This document shows, piece by piece, positions 6,252-38,691 of a DNA stretch of 64,000 bases. The stretch comes from Candidatus Giovannonibacteria bacterium (GTDB lineage: Bacteria; Patescibacteriota; Minisyncoccia; UBA11713; 2-01-FULL-45-33), in assembly GCA_016432405.1 (NCBI GenBank), contig CP066687.1:150281-214280 (forward strand), given 5' to 3'. The position numbers and the translations under genes are program-made. The notes under the pieces were generated by a model that saw only the letters and a list, made by a program, of their open reading frames with translations, was not told where the DNA came from and ran no database searches. Numbering within the stretch: the stretch's first letter is position 1; every line of letters begins with the position of its first letter.

Positions 6252-6526
6252 ATTTTAAGGAATGGATACCAAAAAGACGGGGGCCGATGACCATAGCCGG
6301 CATTTGGACAGCCGGAGTGGTTGCAGCGCTCGCCCTGCTCTCGGCGGCGCTCTGGGCGGATTTTCTGCTTTACAAAAATTTTGTTTCTGAAAAGGAAACG
6401 GCGGCGACGGAATGGAGCGCAGCCGCGCTCAAAAAAATCAATCTGGAAAGGGCGGGCAAAAAACTTCGCGAAGAAAAATCCTTTCTGGACAATCCAACAT
6501 TCCCGTTTGTAGAAAGCCCTTTTTAG
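6248..6526 (+). CDS. Small membrane protein, pilus-cluster associated (hypothetical)
   Basis: 92 aa, one TM (IAGIWTAGVVAALALLSAALWADFLL), overlaps pilO stop. Confidence 0.4.
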   Translation: MNFKEWIPKRRGPMTIAGIWTAGVVAALALLSAALWADFLLYKNFVSEKETAATEWSAAALKKINLERAGKKLREEKSFLDNPTFPFVESPF

Positions 6527-6553
6527 CGCTATAATTTCCTAGTTTGAAATATT

Positions 6554-6625
6554 CCCCTCGTAGCTTAACGGACAAAGCGGCGCTCTTCTAAGGCGTTGAT
6601 GGGGGTTCAATTCCCTCCGAGGGGA
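6554..6625 (+). tRNA. tRNA-Arg (anticodon TCT)
   Basis: Cloverleaf by eye: acceptor CCCCTCG/CGAGGGG, D stem GCTT/AAGC, anticodon loop CTTCTAA, T loop TTCAATT. Confidence 0.7.
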
Positions 6626-6640
6626 CAAGATAAAAATAAA

Positions 6641-6668
6641 AAGCAGGGGAGAATTCCCTGTCTCTCCC
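6641..6668 (-). terminator. Intrinsic terminator oriented for the reverse strand
   Basis: 9-bp stem CAGGGGAGA/TCTCCCCTG with 10-nt loop; U-run (CTTTTTATTTTTA) follows on the reverse strand only. Confidence 0.6.
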
Positions 6669-6856
6669 CTGTGAGTTGATGCGCCTTCAACGAGGCGCCA
6701 TTGTTATCTTTTCAGCCCGGAGTATCTAATTCCGAGCCGCCTTCCTGCCTCCATCCTCGGTCGCCTTTTTGGGCGTGGGCTGGCGGTTTTTGAGCCGTCT
6801 GGTAGCGGCTCGTTACCATACAGGTACGCCAGTGCGACCTTACCCGAACGTGCCCA

Positions 6857-6952
6857 TTACCAGACGGACGCGATGATCTCCGCTTTGTTGACCTTCGCCT
6901 TCTGCGTCAGTGCCAGCTGGAGACACGCGTCGGGTGCGCGTATGCGCTTCAT
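6857..6952 (-). CDS. Small ORF (31 aa, MKRIRAPDACLQLALTQKAKVNKAEIIASVW) with strong SD; part of a GC-rich reverse-strand transcript
   Basis: GGAGGTG 7 nt upstream of ATG; below ORF-track size cut-off; G/C-ending codon usage atypical for this genome. Confidence 0.35.
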   Translation of the reverse strand: MKRIRAPDACLQLALTQKAKVNKAEIIASVW

Positions 6953-6975
6953 AAAATCACCTCCTTCCGCTTTTA

Positions 6976-7003
6976 ATTTTAGCAACTTGCCAGACGCAGT
7001 CAA
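6976..7003 (-). promoter_or_regulatory. Sigma70-like promoter TTGACT-N16-TAAAAT for the reverse-strand small gene
   Basis: Reverse-strand reading: TTGACTgcgtctggcaagttgcTAAAAT, about 25 nt upstream of the SD/ATG. Confidence 0.5.
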
Positions 7004-7791: not shown

Positions 7792-8148
7792 ATGGCTGCT
7801 AGCTTAAAAACAAAAATAATGAGGCGGGTTTACGCAATCTGGTTTGTCCGGAGGGTTTTGCCGACCGGTTTTGCCAGCGCGTTTTTCATGAACGTGGCGC
7901 TGAAAAAGACGGCAGAGCGCTTTTTCGTATCGCAGATTTTCGCGAATTTTTACGCCGTGGCGAAGGCGAATATCTGGGCTGTGCCGAATTTTATCGCTTC
8001 CGCTTTCAATAATGTTGAGCCGTCGGTTTTAGTGCTTATCTCCATCGCCGGCCTTCTAGGCTTCAGTTTGGCTATTGAGCTTTGGAGGAGCGTTCGCAGC
8101 GTTGCCGCGGGGGCGCAGCTTGCCGCATTAAGCGCGCGCAGCAAATAA
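7792..8148 (+). CDS. Hydrophobic membrane protein following ECF sigma (possible anti-sigma; hypothetical)
   Basis: 118 aa, several hydrophobic segments; position only. Confidence 0.35.
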   Translation: MAASLKTKIMRRVYAIWFVRRVLPTGFASAFFMNVALKKTAERFFVSQIFANFYAVAKANIWAVPNFIASAFNNVEPSVLVLISIAGLLGFSLAIELWRSVRSVAAGAQLAALSARSK

Positions 8149-8184
8149 CGGCAAAAAATTTAAAAAAGGTCGGTTTAAAATCAG

Positions 8185-8216
8185 AAAACCTCCCCGATGG
8201 GGAGGTTTTCTTTGTT
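8185..8216 (+). terminator. Intrinsic terminator
   Basis: AAACCTCCCC-GAT-GGGGAGGTTT hairpin followed by TCTTTGTTTTATTTT. Confidence 0.75.
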
Positions 8217-8366
8217 TTATTTTAGATTTAGATAGTACCATACTTTTGCTATCGCCGAAGTATGGTCATAAGAAGCAAGGACACATTATTTTAATTTCGG
8301 TAGGGGTGAGATTCCCCGCCTGCCAAAGCTGCGCTTAGGCGTTGCGGGCAGGGAACTCACGATCGG

Positions 8367-8455
8367 GGCGGAGGCGGGAGGATTCGAACCTCCGAGCCGC
8401 TTGCGCGGCTTCCGGTTTTCAAGACCGGTGCCTTCAACCGCTCAGCCACGCCTCC
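8367..8455 (-). tRNA. tRNA-Ser (anticodon TGA)
   Basis: Reverse complement GGAGGCGTGGCTGAGCGG…CTTGAAA…long variable arm…GGTTCGAATCCTCCCGCCTCCG. Confidence 0.85.
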
Positions 8456-33505: not shown

Positions 33506-34863
33506 CTATTTTAGAATTCCACAATGCCCTGAAAAATAGAAAAACTTCCGCGCGCGAGGTTGTAATTTCTTATTTGGATGAAATTAAAAAGAAAAACAGC
33601 GAACTCAATGCATATTTAGAAGTATTCGAGCAAGCCGCGATTGGGCAAGCAAAAGAAATTGACGAGCGCATCGCCTCCGGCGAAACCCCGGGAGGGCTTT
33701 GGGGAGTCCCTTTGGCGATTAAAGACAATATTTTAATCCGCGGGGAAATTGCTTCGGCGGCTTCCAAAATTTTGGGGAATTATGTTGCGTCTTACGACGC
33801 TTTTGTGATTGAAAAATTAAAAAAAGCCGGGGCAATTTTTTTGGGTAGGACAAACATGGACGAATTCGCAATGGGGTCTTCAACTGAAAATTCTGCTTAC
33901 GGCCCGACAAAAAATCCGCGCGATATCTCAAAAGTTCCGGGCGGTTCATCAGGCGGCTCCGCCGCCGCCGTTGCCGGCGGCCTTGCCATGGCTGCCTTGG
34001 GTTCCGACACAGGCGGCTCAATCCGCCAGCCCGCGGCTTTTTGCGGAGTCGTCGGGCTTAAACCGACTTACGGAGCGGTTTCCCGTTCGGGGCTTATTTC
34101 TATGGCTTCATCTTTGGACCAAATTGGGCCGATCGCGCAGACGGTGGAAGACGCGGAAATTTTATTTAACGTGATTCGCGGGAAGGATGAAATGGATTCT
34201 ACCTCGGTAATATCAAATGTCAAAAGTCAAATGTCAAAAGTCAAAACCATCGGCATTCCAAAAGAGTATTTCAGCGGCGGGCTGGCTCCGGAAATTAAAA
34301 AAAATATTGACGAAACCGTAAAAAAACTATCGCAAAAATACGAAATCCGCGAAATTACTTTGCCCCACACTGAGCACGCGCTTTCCTGCTACTATATAAT
34401 TATGCCGGCGGAGGTCTCATCAAATATGGCCCGGTTTGACGGGATGAGATACGGAAAAAGAACCGATGGGGGTAATTTGATTCAGACATACAAAAAATCG
34501 CGCGGTGAAGGGCTGGGCTTGGAAATCCGGCGCCGCGTCCTTTTGGGCACATATGTTCTTTCCGCGGGCTACTACGACGCTTACTATTCGCGCGCGCAAA
34601 GAATGCGAGCGCTGGTCGCGGAGGATTTTAAAAACGCGTTTAAGGAGATTGACGCCATCTTGGCCCCGACTGCTCCCACTCCGCCGTTTAAATTGGGCGA
34701 AAAATTAAAAGACCCGTTGGCGATGTATCTTTCGGATATTTACACGATTCCGGCGAATCTCGCCGGCGTGCCGGCGCTGACGCTCTCTTCCGGCGCCCAG
34801 CTTATCGCCCCGCATTTTGAGGAAAAAAGATTATTTGAATTAGGAAAATTTTTGGAACGATGA
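33502..34863 (+). CDS. gatA: Glu-tRNA(Gln) amidotransferase subunit A
   Basis: Amidase signature GGSSGGSAAAVAGG…GSDTGGSIRQPA. Confidence 0.9.
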   Translation: MTILEFHNALKNRKTSAREVVISYLDEIKKKNSELNAYLEVFEQAAIGQAKEIDERIASGETPGGLWGVPLAIKDNILIRGEIASAASKILGNYVASYDAFVIEKLKKAGAIFLGRTNMDEFAMGSSTENSAYGPTKNPRDISKVPGGSSGGSAAAVAGGLAMAALGSDTGGSIRQPAAFCGVVGLKPTYGAVSRSGLISMASSLDQIGPIAQTVEDAEILFNVIRGKDEMDSTSVISNVKSQMSKVKTIGIPKEYFSGGLAPEIKKNIDETVKKLSQKYEIREITLPHTEHALSCYYIIMPAEVSSNMARFDGMRYGKRTDGGNLIQTYKKSRGEGLGLEIRRRVLLGTYVLSAGYYDAYYSRAQRMRALVAEDFKNAFKEIDAILAPTAPTPPFKLGEKLKDPLAMYLSDIYTIPANLAGVPALTLSSGAQLIAPHFEEKRLFELGKFLER

Positions 34864-35396
34864 TTGATTTTATAAATTCGGTTTTTGACTTGTTCTTCAA
34901 TCTCGCGGATTTTTTGCTGCGCTATGATTATTCGCAGCCGGTTCCTTTGCTAAAAGCTCTGGCTGTTTACATTTCCATCCCGCTGGTTTGGGGCATAATT
35001 TACAGCGTCTACAAATCCAATCGGATTTTCCGCGCGATGCACGTTTTTGACGAGCCGCAAAGCGCCCCGCCGGAGAACAACGAAAATCTGGACAACTGGC
35101 AGAAAATTCTGTCCCAAGGCGGCTCGGAAAACGAGAACGACAGGAAGCAGGCCGTAATCGGCGCGGATTCTTTGATTGAGAAAATTTTGGCGATGGCGGG
35201 ATACGGCGGCGAAAATTTAGGAGAGAAGCTGAAAAATATTGAGCCGGCGGATTTGGATTCCTTGGATGCCCTTTGGGAAGCGCATAAAATCAGAAACCGC
35301 ATCGCCCACGAAGCCGGTTACTCTCTTCCAAAAGAAGACGCCTCGCGCGCGCTTTCCCTTTTTGAAAAGGTGCTGAAAGAGTTGGAATACATTTAA
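34860..35396 (+). CDS. Membrane-anchored protein with HEPN-like C-terminal helical domain (Rx4H motif)
   Basis: TM LAVYISIPLVWGIIYSVY; C-terminus …AHKIRNRIAHEAGYSL… (R-x4-H followed by Y). Confidence 0.4.
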   Translation: MIDFINSVFDLFFNLADFLLRYDYSQPVPLLKALAVYISIPLVWGIIYSVYKSNRIFRAMHVFDEPQSAPPENNENLDNWQKILSQGGSENENDRKQAVIGADSLIEKILAMAGYGGENLGEKLKNIEPADLDSLDALWEAHKIRNRIAHEAGYSLPKEDASRALSLFEKVLKELEYI

Positions 35397-35497
35397 ATTT
35401 TAAAGGTTGGCAGTTTTAACAGTTAATTTAAAACCTGTTGGGGTAAACCGCCAGCTTTGCCGGCAAAACACAAAAAACATCTAAAAAACGGAGGCTT

Positions 35498-35510
35498 TTG
35501 TTATCCACAG
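35498..35510. repeat. Left inverted repeat / perfect DnaA-box 9-mer TTATCCACA(G)
   Basis: ttgTTATCCACAGg; matches reverse complement at 37210-37222 over 10 nt. Confidence 0.5.
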
Positions 35511-35564
35511 GATATATGATGTAGCGTTGTTGCAACGCGCAGGCGGCTGTGCTAATATAAGTAT

Positions 35565-35906
35565 ATGGAAAAAAATAACGAGTTAGGGCAAATTTTAAAG
35601 GCATACCGGGAAAAGGCTTTCCCTGATCAGGGCTTACGCAGAGTTGCTGCTAAAATCGGGATAGATTATGCGCATTTATTTCGGATTGAATTGGGGCAAT
35701 ATACTCCAGCGGACGAAACTCTGCTTAAAATTTTAGACACTTATGGCATAAAAGATCTCGATGAAAGATTAAAAGTATTTAATTTGGCGCGATTATCACC
35801 AAGTCATCAGGAAGCCATAGAAAAAGTAGCGAAGCAATATGAGGGTAAGCCACAAGAATTTGTTGAAGTATTTTATCGGAAAAGCAGAAAAAATAAATCT
35901 AAATGA
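35565..35906 (+). CDS. XRE-family helix-turn-helix transcriptional regulator
   Basis: Cro/C1-type HTH (LGQILKAYREKAFPDQGLRRVAAKIGIDYAHLFRIELG). Confidence 0.7.
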   Translation: MEKNNELGQILKAYREKAFPDQGLRRVAAKIGIDYAHLFRIELGQYTPADETLLKILDTYGIKDLDERLKVFNLARLSPSHQEAIEKVAKQYEGKPQEFVEVFYRKSRKNKSK

Positions 35907-36595
35907 GTAAAGTTGTTAATAACATTTTGTATTTAAGTAATGAGATGATTGAATCGCATGCAAGCGAGGATCTATTAAAATTTCAAAAAGTAACTGGACA
36001 TCCTCTTGCGTTTCCGATATACCCAGAAGAAGTTTTAAGGAATATTTGGGGCATCCAAGTTGAATATCTGGACAGAGTTAAATCTCTGGAAGGCGAGGAA
36101 GTTCTAGCCTGTTTTATGCCGGGAACCCACTCCGTTCGTTTGAATAACTCAATGCATAGCGTGGAAGGAAGCGTTACGTTCAGCATCGCTCACGAAACCG
36201 GACACGTTTCGCTTCACAATTTTCTATCAGATCTAAAGGAAAAACCAACTTTTTGCGAAGGTTCTATTTTTGGCCGGAAAGCATTAAAAACGATTGAGAG
36301 GCAAGCGGATAGATATGCGTCAGCGCTTTTAATTCCTCAATATGTTCTGATGCCAAAACTAGAATCCATCGGTTGGTCTTTGGGGAAAAAATTAGATTTA
36401 CAACTTCACGGCAGGCCATTAAAAGAATATTTTGGGGTTTCCTTTGAGGCATTAGAGCGTCGGCTTGGATTTTTTGGAATACCTACAATAGGAGGTTTTT
36501 ATAACATTCCATCCAAAAAAATAAAGAATGTTGTTTTTGAAAAAATGGAAGAGGAAAGGGCGAGTTGGGCATTATATGACAAACGACGAGCATAA
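35903..36595 (+). CDS. ImmA/IrrE-family metallo-endopeptidase (DUF955)
   Basis: HEXXH motif IAHETGH; 4-nt overlap with upstream XRE gene. Confidence 0.75.
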   Translation: MSKVVNNILYLSNEMIESHASEDLLKFQKVTGHPLAFPIYPEEVLRNIWGIQVEYLDRVKSLEGEEVLACFMPGTHSVRLNNSMHSVEGSVTFSIAHETGHVSLHNFLSDLKEKPTFCEGSIFGRKALKTIERQADRYASALLIPQYVLMPKLESIGWSLGKKLDLQLHGRPLKEYFGVSFEALERRLGFFGIPTIGGFYNIPSKKIKNVVFEKMEEERASWALYDKRRA

Positions 36596-36609
36596 AAGCA
36601 AAAATTATT

Positions 36610-36882
36610 ATGCCAAATCCTTTAAGAAATAGGGGTTACGAAGAAATTATCAGATTTTTAGAGCATTGTGGATGTAGCCCCGGCCCTATTCACGGCGACG
36701 ATCAAATTTTTTATCATCCAAATAATAAAAATTGGGGCATTAAGGTTAATATAAATCCCACACTAAAAAGAAGCGGTTACCCAATTGGAACGCTTCTGGC
36801 TAACATACGTTCCTTAAGAGCAATATCAGGAATTGAGAAGAAGGAGTGGATTAAATGGTTTAGTGAAAAAAGAAATTTCTAA
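36610..36882 (+). CDS. HicA-like (YcfA family) toxin-like protein
   Basis: …IHGDDQIFYHPNNKNWGIKVNINPTLKRSGYPIGTLLANIRSLRAISGI matches HicA pattern. Confidence 0.5.
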   Translation: MPNPLRNRGYEEIIRFLEHCGCSPGPIHGDDQIFYHPNNKNWGIKVNINPTLKRSGYPIGTLLANIRSLRAISGIEKKEWIKWFSEKRNF

Positions 36883-37149
36883 CCATTTTGCAATGTTCGC
36901 TATAAATGGCAAAACGAAAAATAAAATTCTGTAATTCAATGCCGGTTTTTGATTAATTGCTTTTTCCGACAACTTATTCTCATTTATTGTTTTAAACGTT
37001 GCAATGATTCCGTTGTGAACATGGTTTAAAACATCATCTATTGAATTACCAACATCAACGTAACCAGTTTCGTATGTAATCCCAACATAGCCCTCTTTGC
37101 CACGATAAATGAGGATGTGAAATGTTGCTGATTTTAATGTATTTTTCAT
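36826..37149 (-). CDS. HicB/UPF0150-like antitoxin-like protein (convergent, 57-nt overlap with HicA-like gene)
   Basis: N-terminus …ATFHILIYRGKEGYVGITYETGYVDVGNSIDDVLNHVHNGII resembles HicB N-domain. Confidence 0.4.
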   Translation of the reverse strand: MKNTLKSATFHILIYRGKEGYVGITYETGYVDVGNSIDDVLNHVHNGIIATFKTINENKLSEKAINQKPALNYRILFFVLPFIANIAKWLEISFFTKPFNPLLLLNS

Positions 37150-37209
37150 GTCTATTCTATAATGTCATTATAGCAAACCGGTAACAAAAAATTGTTAGAT
37201 AAAAAGCTG

Positions 37210-37222
37210 GCTGTGGATAAAA
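37210..37222. repeat. Right inverted repeat / perfect DnaA-box 9-mer (CTGTGGATAA)
   Basis: gctggCTGTGGATAAaaat. Confidence 0.5.
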
Positions 37223-37291
37223 ATGACTTAGCGTAGCATAGCATATTGAGCTATTAATTGTCAATGCCAAACCGCCTACAAGACGAGATAT

Positions 37292-37618
37292 TTAAAAAAA
37301 CCAATAAATCACCGCGGCTAAAAAACCGACTATGAGTATGAAACTGGCAGTCCCCCAAATTACCCACTCCCATATTCTTTTTCTCTCTTCCGGCGCTGCC
37401 TCCCTTTTTCCATATATGGTATATAAAATCACTGCTCGGATAACAAAAAGTAATATCAACCATATAAGTGCGTTGATAGCGCTATCGATCAATAGAAAAA
37501 TATTGGGTTCGTGTACTATCCATGGTGCGATAAACGCGCCGACAAAAACCGAAACAGCAACAACTTTAAATATCCGGTACCAAATTTTCTGATTAAGCTC
37601 TTCTGGTTTTGGTCTCAT
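37292..37618 (-). CDS. Small polytopic membrane protein (hypothetical)
   Basis: Start at internal Met (MRPKPEEL…) because upstream part of track ORF overlaps tRNA genes; three TM helices. Confidence 0.4.
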   Translation of the reverse strand: MRPKPEELNQKIWYRIFKVVAVSVFVGAFIAPWIVHEPNIFLLIDSAINALIWLILLFVIRAVILYTIYGKREAAPEERKRIWEWVIWGTASFILIVGFLAAVIYWFF

Positions 37619-37633
37619 ATAGTATGGTTTTTG

Positions 37634-37704
37634 TAGCGGGGGCCGGATTTGAACCGGCGTCTCAAGGTTATGAGCCTTGCGAGATACCACTTCTCCACCC
37701 CGCG
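37634..37704 (-). tRNA. tRNA-Met, initiator-like (anticodon CAT)
   Basis: Reverse complement CGCGGGGTGGAGAAGTGGTATCTCGCAAGGCTCATAACCTTG…GGTTCAAATCCGGCCCCCGCTA closely resembles bacterial tRNA-fMet (C1 unpaired with 72). Confidence 0.7.
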
Positions 37705-37792
37705 ATGTAAAACAAATTTTACTCCGTTTTTTTGAAAAAGCAAGTTTCAAGCTGGCAGAAACTTTAAAAATGTTATATATTAAGTCGTAACT

Positions 37793-37864
37793 GCCGGCGT
37801 AGCTCAGTGGCAGAGCGAGGGACTCATAAGCCCTAGGCCGCAGGTTCGATCCCTGCCGCCGGCA
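37793..37864 (+). tRNA. tRNA-Met or tRNA-Ile2 (anticodon CAT)
   Basis: GCCGGCGTAGCTCAGTGGCAGAGCG…anticodon loop CTCATAA…GGTTCGATCCCTGCCGCCGGCA. Confidence 0.75.
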
Positions 37865-37878
37865 AATGCGAAAATTAT

Positions 37879-37953
37879 GCAGCCGTAGTGTAGCCCGGTT
37901 AACACGCCTCCCTGTCACGGAGGAGATCGTGGGTTCAAATCCCATCGGCTGCG
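37879..37953 (+). tRNA. tRNA-Asp (anticodon GTC)
   Basis: GCAGCCGTAGTGTAGCCCGGTTAACACGCCTCCCTGTCACGGAGG…GGTTCAAATCCCATCGGCTGCG, discriminator G. Confidence 0.85.
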
Positions 37954-38013
37954 CCCCGAACCAGAAAGGAAATATAGTGACTTTATAATTCTATATTAAG
38001 ATTATACCTATAT

Positions 38014-38691
38014 ATGCAGGATACGCCGTTATGCGTAGGAATCATTTTGGATGGAAACAGGCGTTGGGCGAAGGAGCGCGGGCTTCCTTTTTTTGAAGGC
38101 CATCGGCAAGGGCTTGATAATGTTGAGCCGATAGCGCTTGCCGCGCGCGATATGGGCGTAAAGCACCTCGCTCTCTACGCTTTTTCCACGGAAAATTGGG
38201 AGAGGCCCAAGAAAGAAGTTTCCATGCTGATGTCGCTTTTTGAGACGATGGCCAAAGACAAAGCCGACCGGCTCATAAAAGAAGGCGCCAAAGTCCGATT
38301 TGCGGGCCAGCTTTGGCGCTTTTCCGAAAACCTCCAAAAATTGATGCGAGAGGCGGAAGAAAAAAGCCCCGCCGAGCCAAAAATCACGATCTGGATATTG
38401 CTTTCCTACGGCGGGCGGGCGGACATTGCCCAAGCGGCCGGAGCGCTTGCCAAAAAAGGCGAAGCCGCAAGCGAAGAGTCATTGGCGCGCAATTTATGGA
38501 CTGCCGGAATGCCAGACCCGGATATCATCATCCGCACCGGCGGCGAGCAGCGCCAATCCAATTTTCTTTTGTGGCAGGCGGCTTACAGCGAACTTTTTTT
38601 CCCGAAAACTTTCTGGCCGGAATTTACAAAAGAAGAATTTGAAAATATCATAAATGAATACAAAAAGCGCGAACGCCGCAACGGGGTTTGA
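38014..38691 (+). CDS. uppS: Undecaprenyl-diphosphate synthase
   Basis: GIILDGNRRWA…, cis-prenyltransferase signatures. Confidence 0.9.
   Translation: MQDTPLCVGIILDGNRRWAKERGLPFFEGHRQGLDNVEPIALAARDMGVKHLALYAFSTENWERPKKEVSMLMSLFETMAKDKADRLIKEGAKVRFAGQLWRFSENLQKLMREAEEKSPAEPKITIWILLSYGGRADIAQAAGALAKKGEAASEESLARNLWTAGMPDPDIIIRTGGEQRQSNFLLWQAAYSELFFPKTFWPEFTKEEFENIINEYKKRERRNGV

Follow-up and report, generated by a model that had tools for sequence, protein, structure and literature searches.

The closest described counterparts of the locus examined here are paired genes for a helix-turn-helix (HTH) repressor and an M78-family metallopeptidase. CapH/CapP joins an HTH repressor associated with cyclic-oligonucleotide-based antiphage signalling systems (CBASS) to an M78 metallopeptidase that single-stranded DNA (ssDNA) switches on (Lau et al. 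2022, bioRxiv 10.1101/2022.04.27.489752; PDB 7t5t). Pairs of this kind regulate defence operons, DUF3892 operons included; those described lie upstream of, and divergent from, the operon that they regulate, and CapP itself has three domains, with a C-terminal GAF domain and, in about a third of CapPs, an optional cysteine-switch loop (bioRxiv 10.1101/2022.04.27.489752). Pairs of the ImmR/ImmA type are, as reported in a paper that cites the original work, the induction switches of the integrative and conjugative element (ICE) ICEBs1 and of phage phi105. Here we describe such a pair in Candidatus Giovannonibacteria bacterium, a member of the candidate phyla radiation (CPR), where it shares a small islet with a HicA-like gene, a convergent partner of that gene and a gene for a membrane protein. 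The islet lies in a 64,000-nucleotide stretch of assembly GCA_016432405.1 (contig CP066687.1, positions 150,281 to 214,280 of the forward strand), which we call the window and to which all coordinates refer unless a locus is named.

The initial annotation of this DNA had delimited a segment at 35498-37222 by two inverted DnaA-box 10-mers, and had read these either as terminal inverted repeats of a decayed mobile or defence islet or as a link between the enclosed genes and replication initiation. We find instead that the islet is, overall, an ordinary small tRNA-adjacent acquisition without mobility genes. The explanation that we favour, and in which we place moderate confidence, is that it is a mosaic of independently travelling cassettes, with neither integrase nor transposase, in which a putative stress switch would be coupled to expression of the HicA-like protein. 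What the sequences show is which families or folds the genes belong to, that the segment is an insertion, that each cassette and the operator are conserved, and how the repeats compare with chance.

An insertion between p178 and a tRNA gene

35400 to 37632, no strand assigned: islet (inserted DNA), delimited by alignment to loci L094, L095, L210, L212 and L215; low GC

Islet-specific DNA occupies about 2.2 kb (~35400-37632) between p178, a gene for a conserved membrane protein that follows gatA, and the 3' end of a minus-strand tRNA-Met at 37633. In alignments, the homology of the window to L094, L095, L210, L212 and L215 stops ~10 nt past the p178 stop codon. Only 36 nt separate p178 from the tRNAs in L094, L095 and L210-L215, where the order is then tRNA-Met, tRNA-Met, tRNA-Asp; in L216, a minus-strand tRNA-Met with the same orientation as in the window comes 13 nt after p178. 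The p178 proteins of these loci are 83% (L094), 84% (L210-L215), 67% (L095) and 80% (L216) identical to that of the window. Compared over the interval from gatA to the tRNA cluster, the segment is missing from L094, L095, L210-L215 and L216, and the acquired, tRNA-adjacent origin that had been proposed is supported, with p178 of the relatives leading to tRNAs within 13-36 nt. Because empty sites exist in several relatives, we read the segment as a horizontally acquired, tRNA-adjacent islet, and sequence comparison supports this origin well.

The closer relatives used to place the junctions were found through p178 homologues. A GTDB scan with GatA gave nearest species representatives that were 56-57% identical; these served for the ligA-gatC-gatA-p178 synteny and were too distant for the junctions. 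None of the five islet proteins had a tblastn match in the GatA-anchored loci L011-L090, and absence of the islet from the closer relatives was checked from gene tables rather than by tblastn.

The AT-richness noticed earlier also holds, with a GC content of 0.31-0.42 over 35400-37400 versus 0.45-0.54 in the flanks. No family match to an integrase or transposase was found among the islet proteins in Pfam, NCBIfam, PHROG and PADLOC scans, and comparison of the insert ends revealed no att-like direct repeat of at least 10 nt between them, nor one of the tRNA 3' end. All five open reading frames (ORFs) of the islet are intact, and the islet is 100% identical in ten Logan contigs (L001-L010) from ten sequencing runs.

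A repressor-peptidase cassette with a near-invariant promoter

35521 to 35544, plus strand: conserved 24-nt promoter/operator GTAGCGTTGTTGCAACGCGCAGGC, near-invariant in six of six XRE-ImmA modules
35553 to 35558, plus strand: putative -10 TAATAT, separated from the -35 by 17 nt and from the XRE ATG by 6 nt
35565 to 35906, plus strand: XRE-family HTH repressor (CapH/ImmR/DdrO-like), 113 aa; PF01381 HTH_3
35903 to 36595, plus strand: M78 ImmA/IrrE-type zinc metallopeptidase (CapP-like), 230 aa; PF06114

The first cassette is the XRE-ImmA/IrrE pair with a 4-nt gene overlap that the initial annotation had recognised, and family searches agree with it: the XRE ORF matches PF01381 HTH_3 with 31.4 bits (cut-off 23), and the ImmA ORF matches PF06114 Peptidase_M78 with 44 bits (cut-off 22) and carries an HETGH motif. 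The best PADLOC match of the peptidase is capP (55 bits, E = 1.7e-15), and a profile of eight ImmA family members matches the CapP crystal structure PDB 7t5t with E = 4.5e-9. Residues H97, E98, H101 and E132 are invariant in an alignment of the eight members and, by analogy with H96, E97, H100 and E129 of CapP, probably have zinc-ligand roles. Between H101 and E132 there is a loop, holding Cys118, that five of the eight aligned members have and the other three lack through deletion. For the XRE family profile, the best PDB matches are ICEBs1 ImmR (7t8i) and then DdrO, both weak (E = 0.02-0.2).

Close relatives of the peptidase are rare, numbering eight proteins in 5.8 billion clusters, and metagenome and viral scans with the ImmA alignment returned only distant matches of at most 31% identity. 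An XRE gene of 110-121 aa stands directly before the peptidase gene in all five of the other loci looked up. With the window this makes six XRE-ImmA modules, all from patescibacterial or unassigned metagenome loci, whose proteins are 41-58% identical. The cargo that follows them varies (a lamin-tail-domain (LTD) protein in L091, L207 and L208, DUF3892 in L204, the HicA-like gene in the window) and is downstream and co-directional in six of six loci.

The operator form shared by the six modules is GTAGYGTTGTTGCAACRYGCAGGC, an inverted repeat YGTTG-TTG-CAACR together with a TTGCAA hexamer; in the window, TTGCAA is the -35 at 35530-35535, and the arms GCGTTG and CAACGC form the inverted repeat. 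Exactly 17 nt beyond the -35, every module has a TAnnnT hexamer whose end lies 6-8 nt ahead of the ATG, and a Shine-Dalgarno sequence is missing before the XRE gene in all six. This layout suggests an autoregulated promoter with an operator overlapping the -35 and a leaderless XRE mRNA. No second copy of the operator was found near the hicB-like promoter or elsewhere in the window, and direct XRE control of the hicB-like promoter via the same operator was dropped as a candidate because the operator occurs only once there. The XRE-peptidase pair is a CapH/CapP-like regulator of the ImmR/ImmA type, and represents a patescibacterial subfamily with a distinctive conserved promoter.

The five other modules have a further element, missing from the window. 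Downstream of the peptidase gene they carry a terminator-like hairpin that covaries (CCCAG...CTGGG) and, after it, a conserved leader of ~120-170 nt. The leader has a long-range helix of 19 predicted pairs, six of which show compensatory changes, and ends ~30 nt before the ATG of the cargo (LTD-domain or DUF3892 gene).

L091 6700-6849; L204 5682-5854; L207 2101-2268; L208 1346-1509; L209 4686-4860: hairpin and leader element

The surroundings of three of these modules also deserve mention. In L207 (3009-7100), XRE-ImmA-LTD is followed by small unannotated genes and then by DUF3800 and an HTH_17 gene; in L208 (2249-6262), similar small unannotated genes lead to an NgoPII-type restriction-modification (R-M) system. 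Both regions may be larger mobile or defence islands. In L091 (3583-7623), which has the closest ImmA homologue (51%), the XRE-ImmA-LTD module lies near uppS and adjoins the 3' end of a tRNA-Ala on the minus strand, one member of a divergent tRNA pair; this geometry resembles that of the window.

A convergent pair with a predicted HicA-fold member

36610 to 36882, plus strand: predicted HicA-fold protein, 90 aa; PF07927 sub-threshold, HicA profile and Foldseek matches
36826 to 37149, minus strand: convergent partner (HicB-like), 107 aa; homologues in L217 and L218, weak Foldseek matches
36826 to 36882, no strand assigned: dual-coding 3' overlap, 57 nt, coding on both strands
37167 to 37175, minus strand: putative extended -10 TGcTATAAT, 17 nt upstream of the hicB-like ATG
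37235 to 37264, minus strand: promoter-like site TTGACA-18-TATGCT with upstream TG, 10 of 12 positions, the region's best match

For the HicA-like gene of the second cassette, the original assignment is supported at the level of the predicted fold and falls short of the family threshold. The ORF scores 19 bits against PF07927, below the cut-off of 27, and matches below the cut-off are found in six of 15 family members (best E = 1.8e-5); the family profile, for its part, aligns with HicA of Burkholderia pseudomallei (6g26/4c26) over 58 residues with E = 0.001. A single-sequence model (predicted local distance difference test score, pLDDT, 62) has the order alpha-beta-beta-beta-alpha, and its top Foldseek matches are HicA 6g26 and 1whz, with a probability of 0.99 and a template-modelling (TM) score of 0.70-0.75 on the target, but with E = 0.07-0.1. 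The invariant G29-D30-D31 of the family aligns with G-S-(H24A) of 6g26. H24, mutated to alanine in that chain, is what we take to be the catalytic residue of the HicA G-S-H motif. The protein also carries an extra C-terminal helical extension with invariant W80 and W83, and an exhaustive HMMER search found only 14 representatives of its family in 1.84 billion proteins. It probably has a HicA fold that lacks the canonical active site.

The convergent gene had been described as HicB/UPF0150-like. Its convergent position and 57-nt overlap were confirmed, and a match to the HicB sequence family was not: three partner-family members searched against Pfam at an E limit of 10 (HMMER filters drop most matches above ~0.1) gave no match, and no HicB was found among PDB sequence matches. 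The model of the partner has a predicted N-terminal beta-beta-beta-alpha domain like the HicB N-domain, for which Foldseek returned weak matches (E > 0.4) to 2yzt (probability 0.90) and to the HicB N-domain 6g1c (probability 0.80), as well as to 3k6q and 4p7d. Residues 70-107 form a hydrophobic, low-confidence tail with no domain match, and there is no ribbon-helix-helix (RHH) or HTH DNA-binding domain. A HicB-like fold of the partner is weakly supported by this model.

Homologues of the two proteins, 54-60% identical overall and 54-58% for the partner, are present in L217, a 37.6-kb phage-like contig with an SU10-type adaptor gene, and in L218, a short metagenome contig. The convergent overlapping arrangement is the same in three of three loci, with a 3' overlap of 57 nt in the window and in L217 and of 63 nt in L218. 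Read on the opposite strand, the ...KRNF-stop end of the HicA-like protein gives the partner's invariant LEISFFTKP, and both strands of the overlap are therefore coding. RNA folding of the overlap gave no structure beyond that of shuffled controls (z = 0.1), and viral-contig scans with the HicB-like and HicA-like alignments found nothing. The two genes form a real, conserved unit, which we call HicAB-like rather than HicAB because it departs from several of the canonical HicAB criteria. We read the second cassette as a toxin-antitoxin-like pair whose activity may be toxic.

Proposed coupling of a putative stress switch to the HicA-like gene

By analogy with ImmR/ImmA, DdrO/IrrE and CapH/CapP, an XRE dimer would bind the conserved palindromic operator over its own -35 and keep the leaderless operon low. 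A stress signal (ssDNA or DNA damage in the case of CapP and IrrE) would activate the peptidase, whereupon the repressor would be cleaved and the operon de-repressed. In this genome, de-repression should also raise expression of the HicA-like protein, because its gene starts 14 nt after the stop codon of the peptidase gene with no terminator between them; no terminator-like site was found anywhere in 34800-38000. From there, transcription would continue into the convergent partner gene at its 3' end and, if the pair behaves like a toxin-antitoxin system, stress would tip the balance toward the HicA-like protein. We infer repressor binding and cleavage, the trigger, toxicity, co-transcription and antisense or interference effects on these grounds, and with them a damage-triggered switch that drives a toxin-like effector.

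Several observations weigh against this reading. The capP model match ends at residue 188, so that ~42 of the 230 residues of the peptidase remain; judged by protein length, this leaves no room for a C-terminal GAF domain, the ssDNA sensor of the CapP/IrrE type would be missing, and the trigger may differ. The islet cargo is co-directional and downstream, not divergent as in the described CapH/CapP pairs. A weak promoter-like site in the 3' end of the ImmA gene (36576-36605) could allow independent transcription of the HicA-like gene, whose product, with its catalytic histidine missing, may be neither an RNase nor a toxin. For the partner, searches of Pfam, NCBIfam, PHROG and PADLOC gave no match, and the confidence of its model is low (pLDDT 50). 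In L217 and L218 no XRE-ImmA module adjoins the HicA/HicB-like pair; with the cassettes unlinked there, their joining in the window may be a recombination accident. Finally, the two perfect DnaA 9-mers treated below are mildly unexpected.

It is conceivable, although we think it unlikely, that the islet is instead an inert remnant of a degraded prophage or ICE, with XRE-ImmA as a leftover immunity or induction switch and the other genes without a current joint function. ImmR/ImmA-type pairs serve ICEBs1 and phi105 as induction switches, a HicA/HicB-like cassette is present on a phage-like contig, and the 108-aa membrane protein of the islet weakly matches pilins of type IV secretion systems (T4SS) and ICEs; the islet adjoins a tRNA 3' end and has no integrase, and L207 and L208 hold XRE-ImmA among small genes, an R-M system, DUF3800 and HTH_17. 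An inert remnant fits poorly, however, with five intact ORFs in a segment that is 100% identical in ten contigs from ten runs, and with an XRE-ImmA module whose proteins are full-length and whose operator is strongly conserved in all six loci, each either patescibacterial or an unassigned metagenome locus. Moreover, this module is usually followed by a single cargo gene and not by phage or ICE genes, which suggests a self-contained regulator-cargo unit, and its viral-contig homologues are at most 30% identical.

A more elaborate version of the coupling strikes us as improbable. Here a CPR-specific XRE/CapP-like cassette and a convergent GDD-HicA/HicB-like pair would together form a damage- or phage-triggered abortive-infection module, in which repressor cleavage switches on a non-canonical HicA-fold effector, read-through silences the gene of a membrane-tethered antitoxin via the dual-coding overlap, and the two DnaA boxes could gate both promoters by replication status. 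We retain the simpler reading, a mosaic of cassettes in which a stress switch would raise expression of the HicA-like protein.

The paired DnaA-box 10-mers

35501 to 35510, plus strand: left TTATCCACAG, a perfect DnaA-box 9-mer plus G, inside the 13-bp palindrome TATCC-ACA-GGATA
37211 to 37220, minus strand: right TTATCCACAG, preceding the hicB-like gene's extended -10 by 38 nt

The left copy is where the initial annotation had put it; the right one, given there as 37210-37219, is displaced by one base. The agreement of the 13-nt arms at 12 of 13 positions is confirmed. The boxes are promoter-upstream sequences of two convergent units and not element ends. One box precedes the first gene of each of the two convergent transcription units; relative to the direction of transcription both are oriented alike, and the left box is 20 nt upstream of the XRE -35 element and 42 nt away from the putative -10. 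A regulatory site common to both units would be compatible with this layout.

DnaA may bind the boxes, since both are perfect 9-mers. If they are functional, DnaA-ATP would bind upstream of both convergent promoters and tie the XRE-ImmA-HicA-like operon and the hicB-like gene to the replication-initiation state, a proposal that we regard as doubtful. In its favour, the two are the only perfect 9-mers of this high-affinity type in 64 kb versus 0.17 expected, a count reached in one of 100 shuffles; they stand upstream of the first genes of both units in the same relative orientation, 42 nt and 38 nt from the putative -10s; and the left one is embedded in a 13-bp palindrome. The statistic is, however, post hoc, and several chance perfect boxes are expected in a genome of ~650 kb (an estimate from 4^9 and composition). 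Sites with at most one mismatch are not enriched in the 64 kb (13 versus 9.4 expected), and neither a DnaA-box cluster, whose absence had been noted from the start, nor a GC-skew inflection was found near the boxes in the window. The DnaA-box consensus used may not be that of this lineage. Nor is the box kept where the genes recur: the left one is not conserved at the aligned position in the five homologous XRE-ImmA modules, of which only L208 has a loosely similar TGTATCACAG there, and TTATCCACA is absent upstream of the partner gene in L217 and L218.

An oriC-type cluster, with several boxes inside a few hundred nt, an AT-rich unwinding element and a skew switch, is not present. Same-strain variation was uninformative as a test of box conservation, since the ten Logan contigs are 100% identical. 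The notion that the boxes are relics of the long-range stem arms found downstream of ImmA elsewhere (CTAGCACAGG-like) is unsubstantiated; it needs gaps, and the order of the arms is reversed.

That the boxes are terminal inverted repeats of a decayed transposon-like element, or one like a miniature inverted-repeat transposable element (MITE), spanning 35498-37223, is largely refuted and highly improbable: the 12-of-13 inverted match does bracket four genes in an AT-rich segment, but the DNA missing in relatives reaches 104 nt past the left repeat and 412 nt past the right, no target-site duplication was seen in the sequence adjoining the arms, there is no transposase or integrase, no further copy of TTATCCACAG exists in the window, and the same genes occur without these repeats in five XRE-ImmA modules and two HicA/HicB-like cassettes. 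When a 220-nt and a 660-nt region are placed at random in the window, 1.7 kb from each other, they share an exact inverted repeat of at least 10 nt in 28% of cases; the two insert-end regions themselves hold longer inverted matches of 12, 11 and 11 nt, and the box pair ranks 15th of 51 inverted pairs in 3.2 kb. The inverted-repeat relation of the boxes is most likely coincidental.

The tRNA cluster and neighbouring genes

34860 to 35396, plus strand: p178, conserved membrane protein, left flank, outside the islet; 4-nt overlap with gatA
37292 to 37618, minus strand: protein of 108 aa, encoded within the insert, with three hydrophobic segments that are putatively transmembrane; from the ORF list
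37633 to 37704, minus strand: tRNA-Met, 3' end abutting the islet; tRNA search and Rfam
37792 to 37865, plus strand: tRNA-Met, right flank; tRNA search and Rfam
37878 to 37956, plus strand: tRNA-Asp, right flank; tRNA search and Rfam

The tRNA-Met and two further tRNAs that had been predicted near the island were found at the positions above, and an Rfam search of 35300-38000 returned these three tRNAs and nothing else. Downstream of p178, the first tRNA-Met has plus-strand orientation in L094 (5924-5995), L095 (7574-7645) and L210 (1178-1249) through L215, and minus-strand orientation in the window, L216 (2587-2659; p178 80%) and the distant L011 (7923-7994). It is a single tRNA gene with an orientation polymorphism among relatives, independent of the islet.

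Beyond the cluster, the window has uppS (38014-38691), L095 a gene for a 175-aa protein (7850-8377), L094 a GIY-YIG protein and a type III R-M methylase after tRNA-Asp (6279-6985), and L210-L215 nlpC/P60 directly after the tRNAs (1435-1878 in L210). Because the far side also varies among L094, L210-L215, L095 and the window, the cluster looks like a hotspot of gene flux on both sides. Several of the contigs L001-L010 stop inside the second tRNA-Met (window ~37822) or tRNA-Asp (~37926), which suggests co-occurring strains that have the tRNAs in common and are different beyond them.

Most of the ~400 nt ahead of the tRNA is taken up by the 108-aa gene, which the initial annotation missed. The gene starts 14 nt past the 3' end of the minus-strand tRNA-Met, and the two may therefore be transcribed together. 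Its product weakly matches, below cut-off in both cases, PF18895 (T4SS pilin; 18.9 bits) and NF045849 (Mbov_0395 ICE pilin-like family; 19.6 bits); no homologue was found by tblastn in the related loci L011-L090, nor any match in phage records.

On the other side of the islet, p178 follows gatA in ~22 GatA-anchored loci in which tblastn detects p178, mostly in metagenome-assembled genomes of Parcubacteria/Patescibacteria, and many of these loci also keep ligA and gatC upstream. The protein has a hydrophobic N-terminal segment and a WEAHKxRNRIAH motif (Rx4H, HEPN-like) that is invariant in 11 divergent homologues; its Pfam matches to HEPN families are sub-threshold only (Swt1-like, 18 bits). 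This conserved HEPN-like protein belongs to a core translation operon.

Significance

Because the DnaA-box terminal-repeat feature does not hold, the locus offers neither a new class of mobile element nor a link of a new kind to the control of replication. It is a record of gene flux around a tRNA hotspot in a CPR genome. Among CapH/CapP-like stress switches it sets apart a patescibacterial subfamily whose apparently leaderless promoter/operator is conserved unusually well, and it brings to light a rare family with a predicted HicA fold but no catalytic histidine, tied to its partner by a convergent arrangement with dual coding. Should the proposed coupling be real, it would connect a generic damage sensor with a toxin-like effector in organisms about whose defence repertoire little is known; the native host is uncultured.

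Comparison with known systems

Like other tRNA-adjacent genomic islands, the islet abuts a tRNA 3' end, is missing from relatives and deviates in base composition, and other sites around the same tRNA cluster carry different cargo in relatives. In contrast to them, it lacks an integrase, shows no direct repeat of the tRNA 3' end in the manner of an att site, and measures only 2.2 kb.

Compared with the type II HicAB system of B. pseudomallei (PDB 6g26, 4c26), the second cassette has a member that aligns with the HicA profile over 58 residues and has a predicted HicA-like topology, and a partner whose predicted beta-beta-beta-alpha resembles the HicB N-terminal domain, with weak Foldseek matches; it is likewise a compact two-gene unit that moves between contexts, a phage-like contig included. 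However, the catalytic histidine of G-S-H is replaced by an invariant G-D-D, the HicA-like protein has a C-terminal helical extension with W80 and W83, and the partner has a hydrophobic tail in place of an RHH or HTH domain. Whereas hicA and hicB share one operon, the islet genes are convergent with a conserved dual-coding overlap of 57-63 nt, and neither protein reaches Pfam cut-offs.

With ImmR/ImmA (ICEBs1, phi105) and with DdrO/IrrE (PprI) of Deinococcus, the first cassette shares the logic of a repressor and an M78 protease, and ImmR 7t8i and DdrO are the best, if weak (E = 0.02-0.2), PDB matches of its XRE profile; it also stands on acquired DNA beside a tRNA. It differs in that integrase, excisionase, conjugation and structural genes are absent from the islet and that the sequence similarity is at the domain level only.

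The differences from CapH/CapP, apart from the direction of the cargo, are a peptidase of 230 aa with no space for a GAF domain, an operator that overlaps the regulator's own -35 with an apparently leaderless mRNA, the lack of CBASS or another recognised defence system adjacent to the pair, and a CPR bacterium as host. Against these stand a small XRE HTH gene directly before an HExxH M78 peptidase gene, a peptidase whose best PADLOC and PDB matches are both CapP, and a cysteine in an optional loop between the second histidine and the glutamate ligand that recalls the CapP cysteine-switch loop. As in CapH/CapP, there is a conserved operator at the promoter, and in L204 the gene after the module encodes DUF3892, a family that has been reported as cargo alongside CapH/CapP-like pairs.

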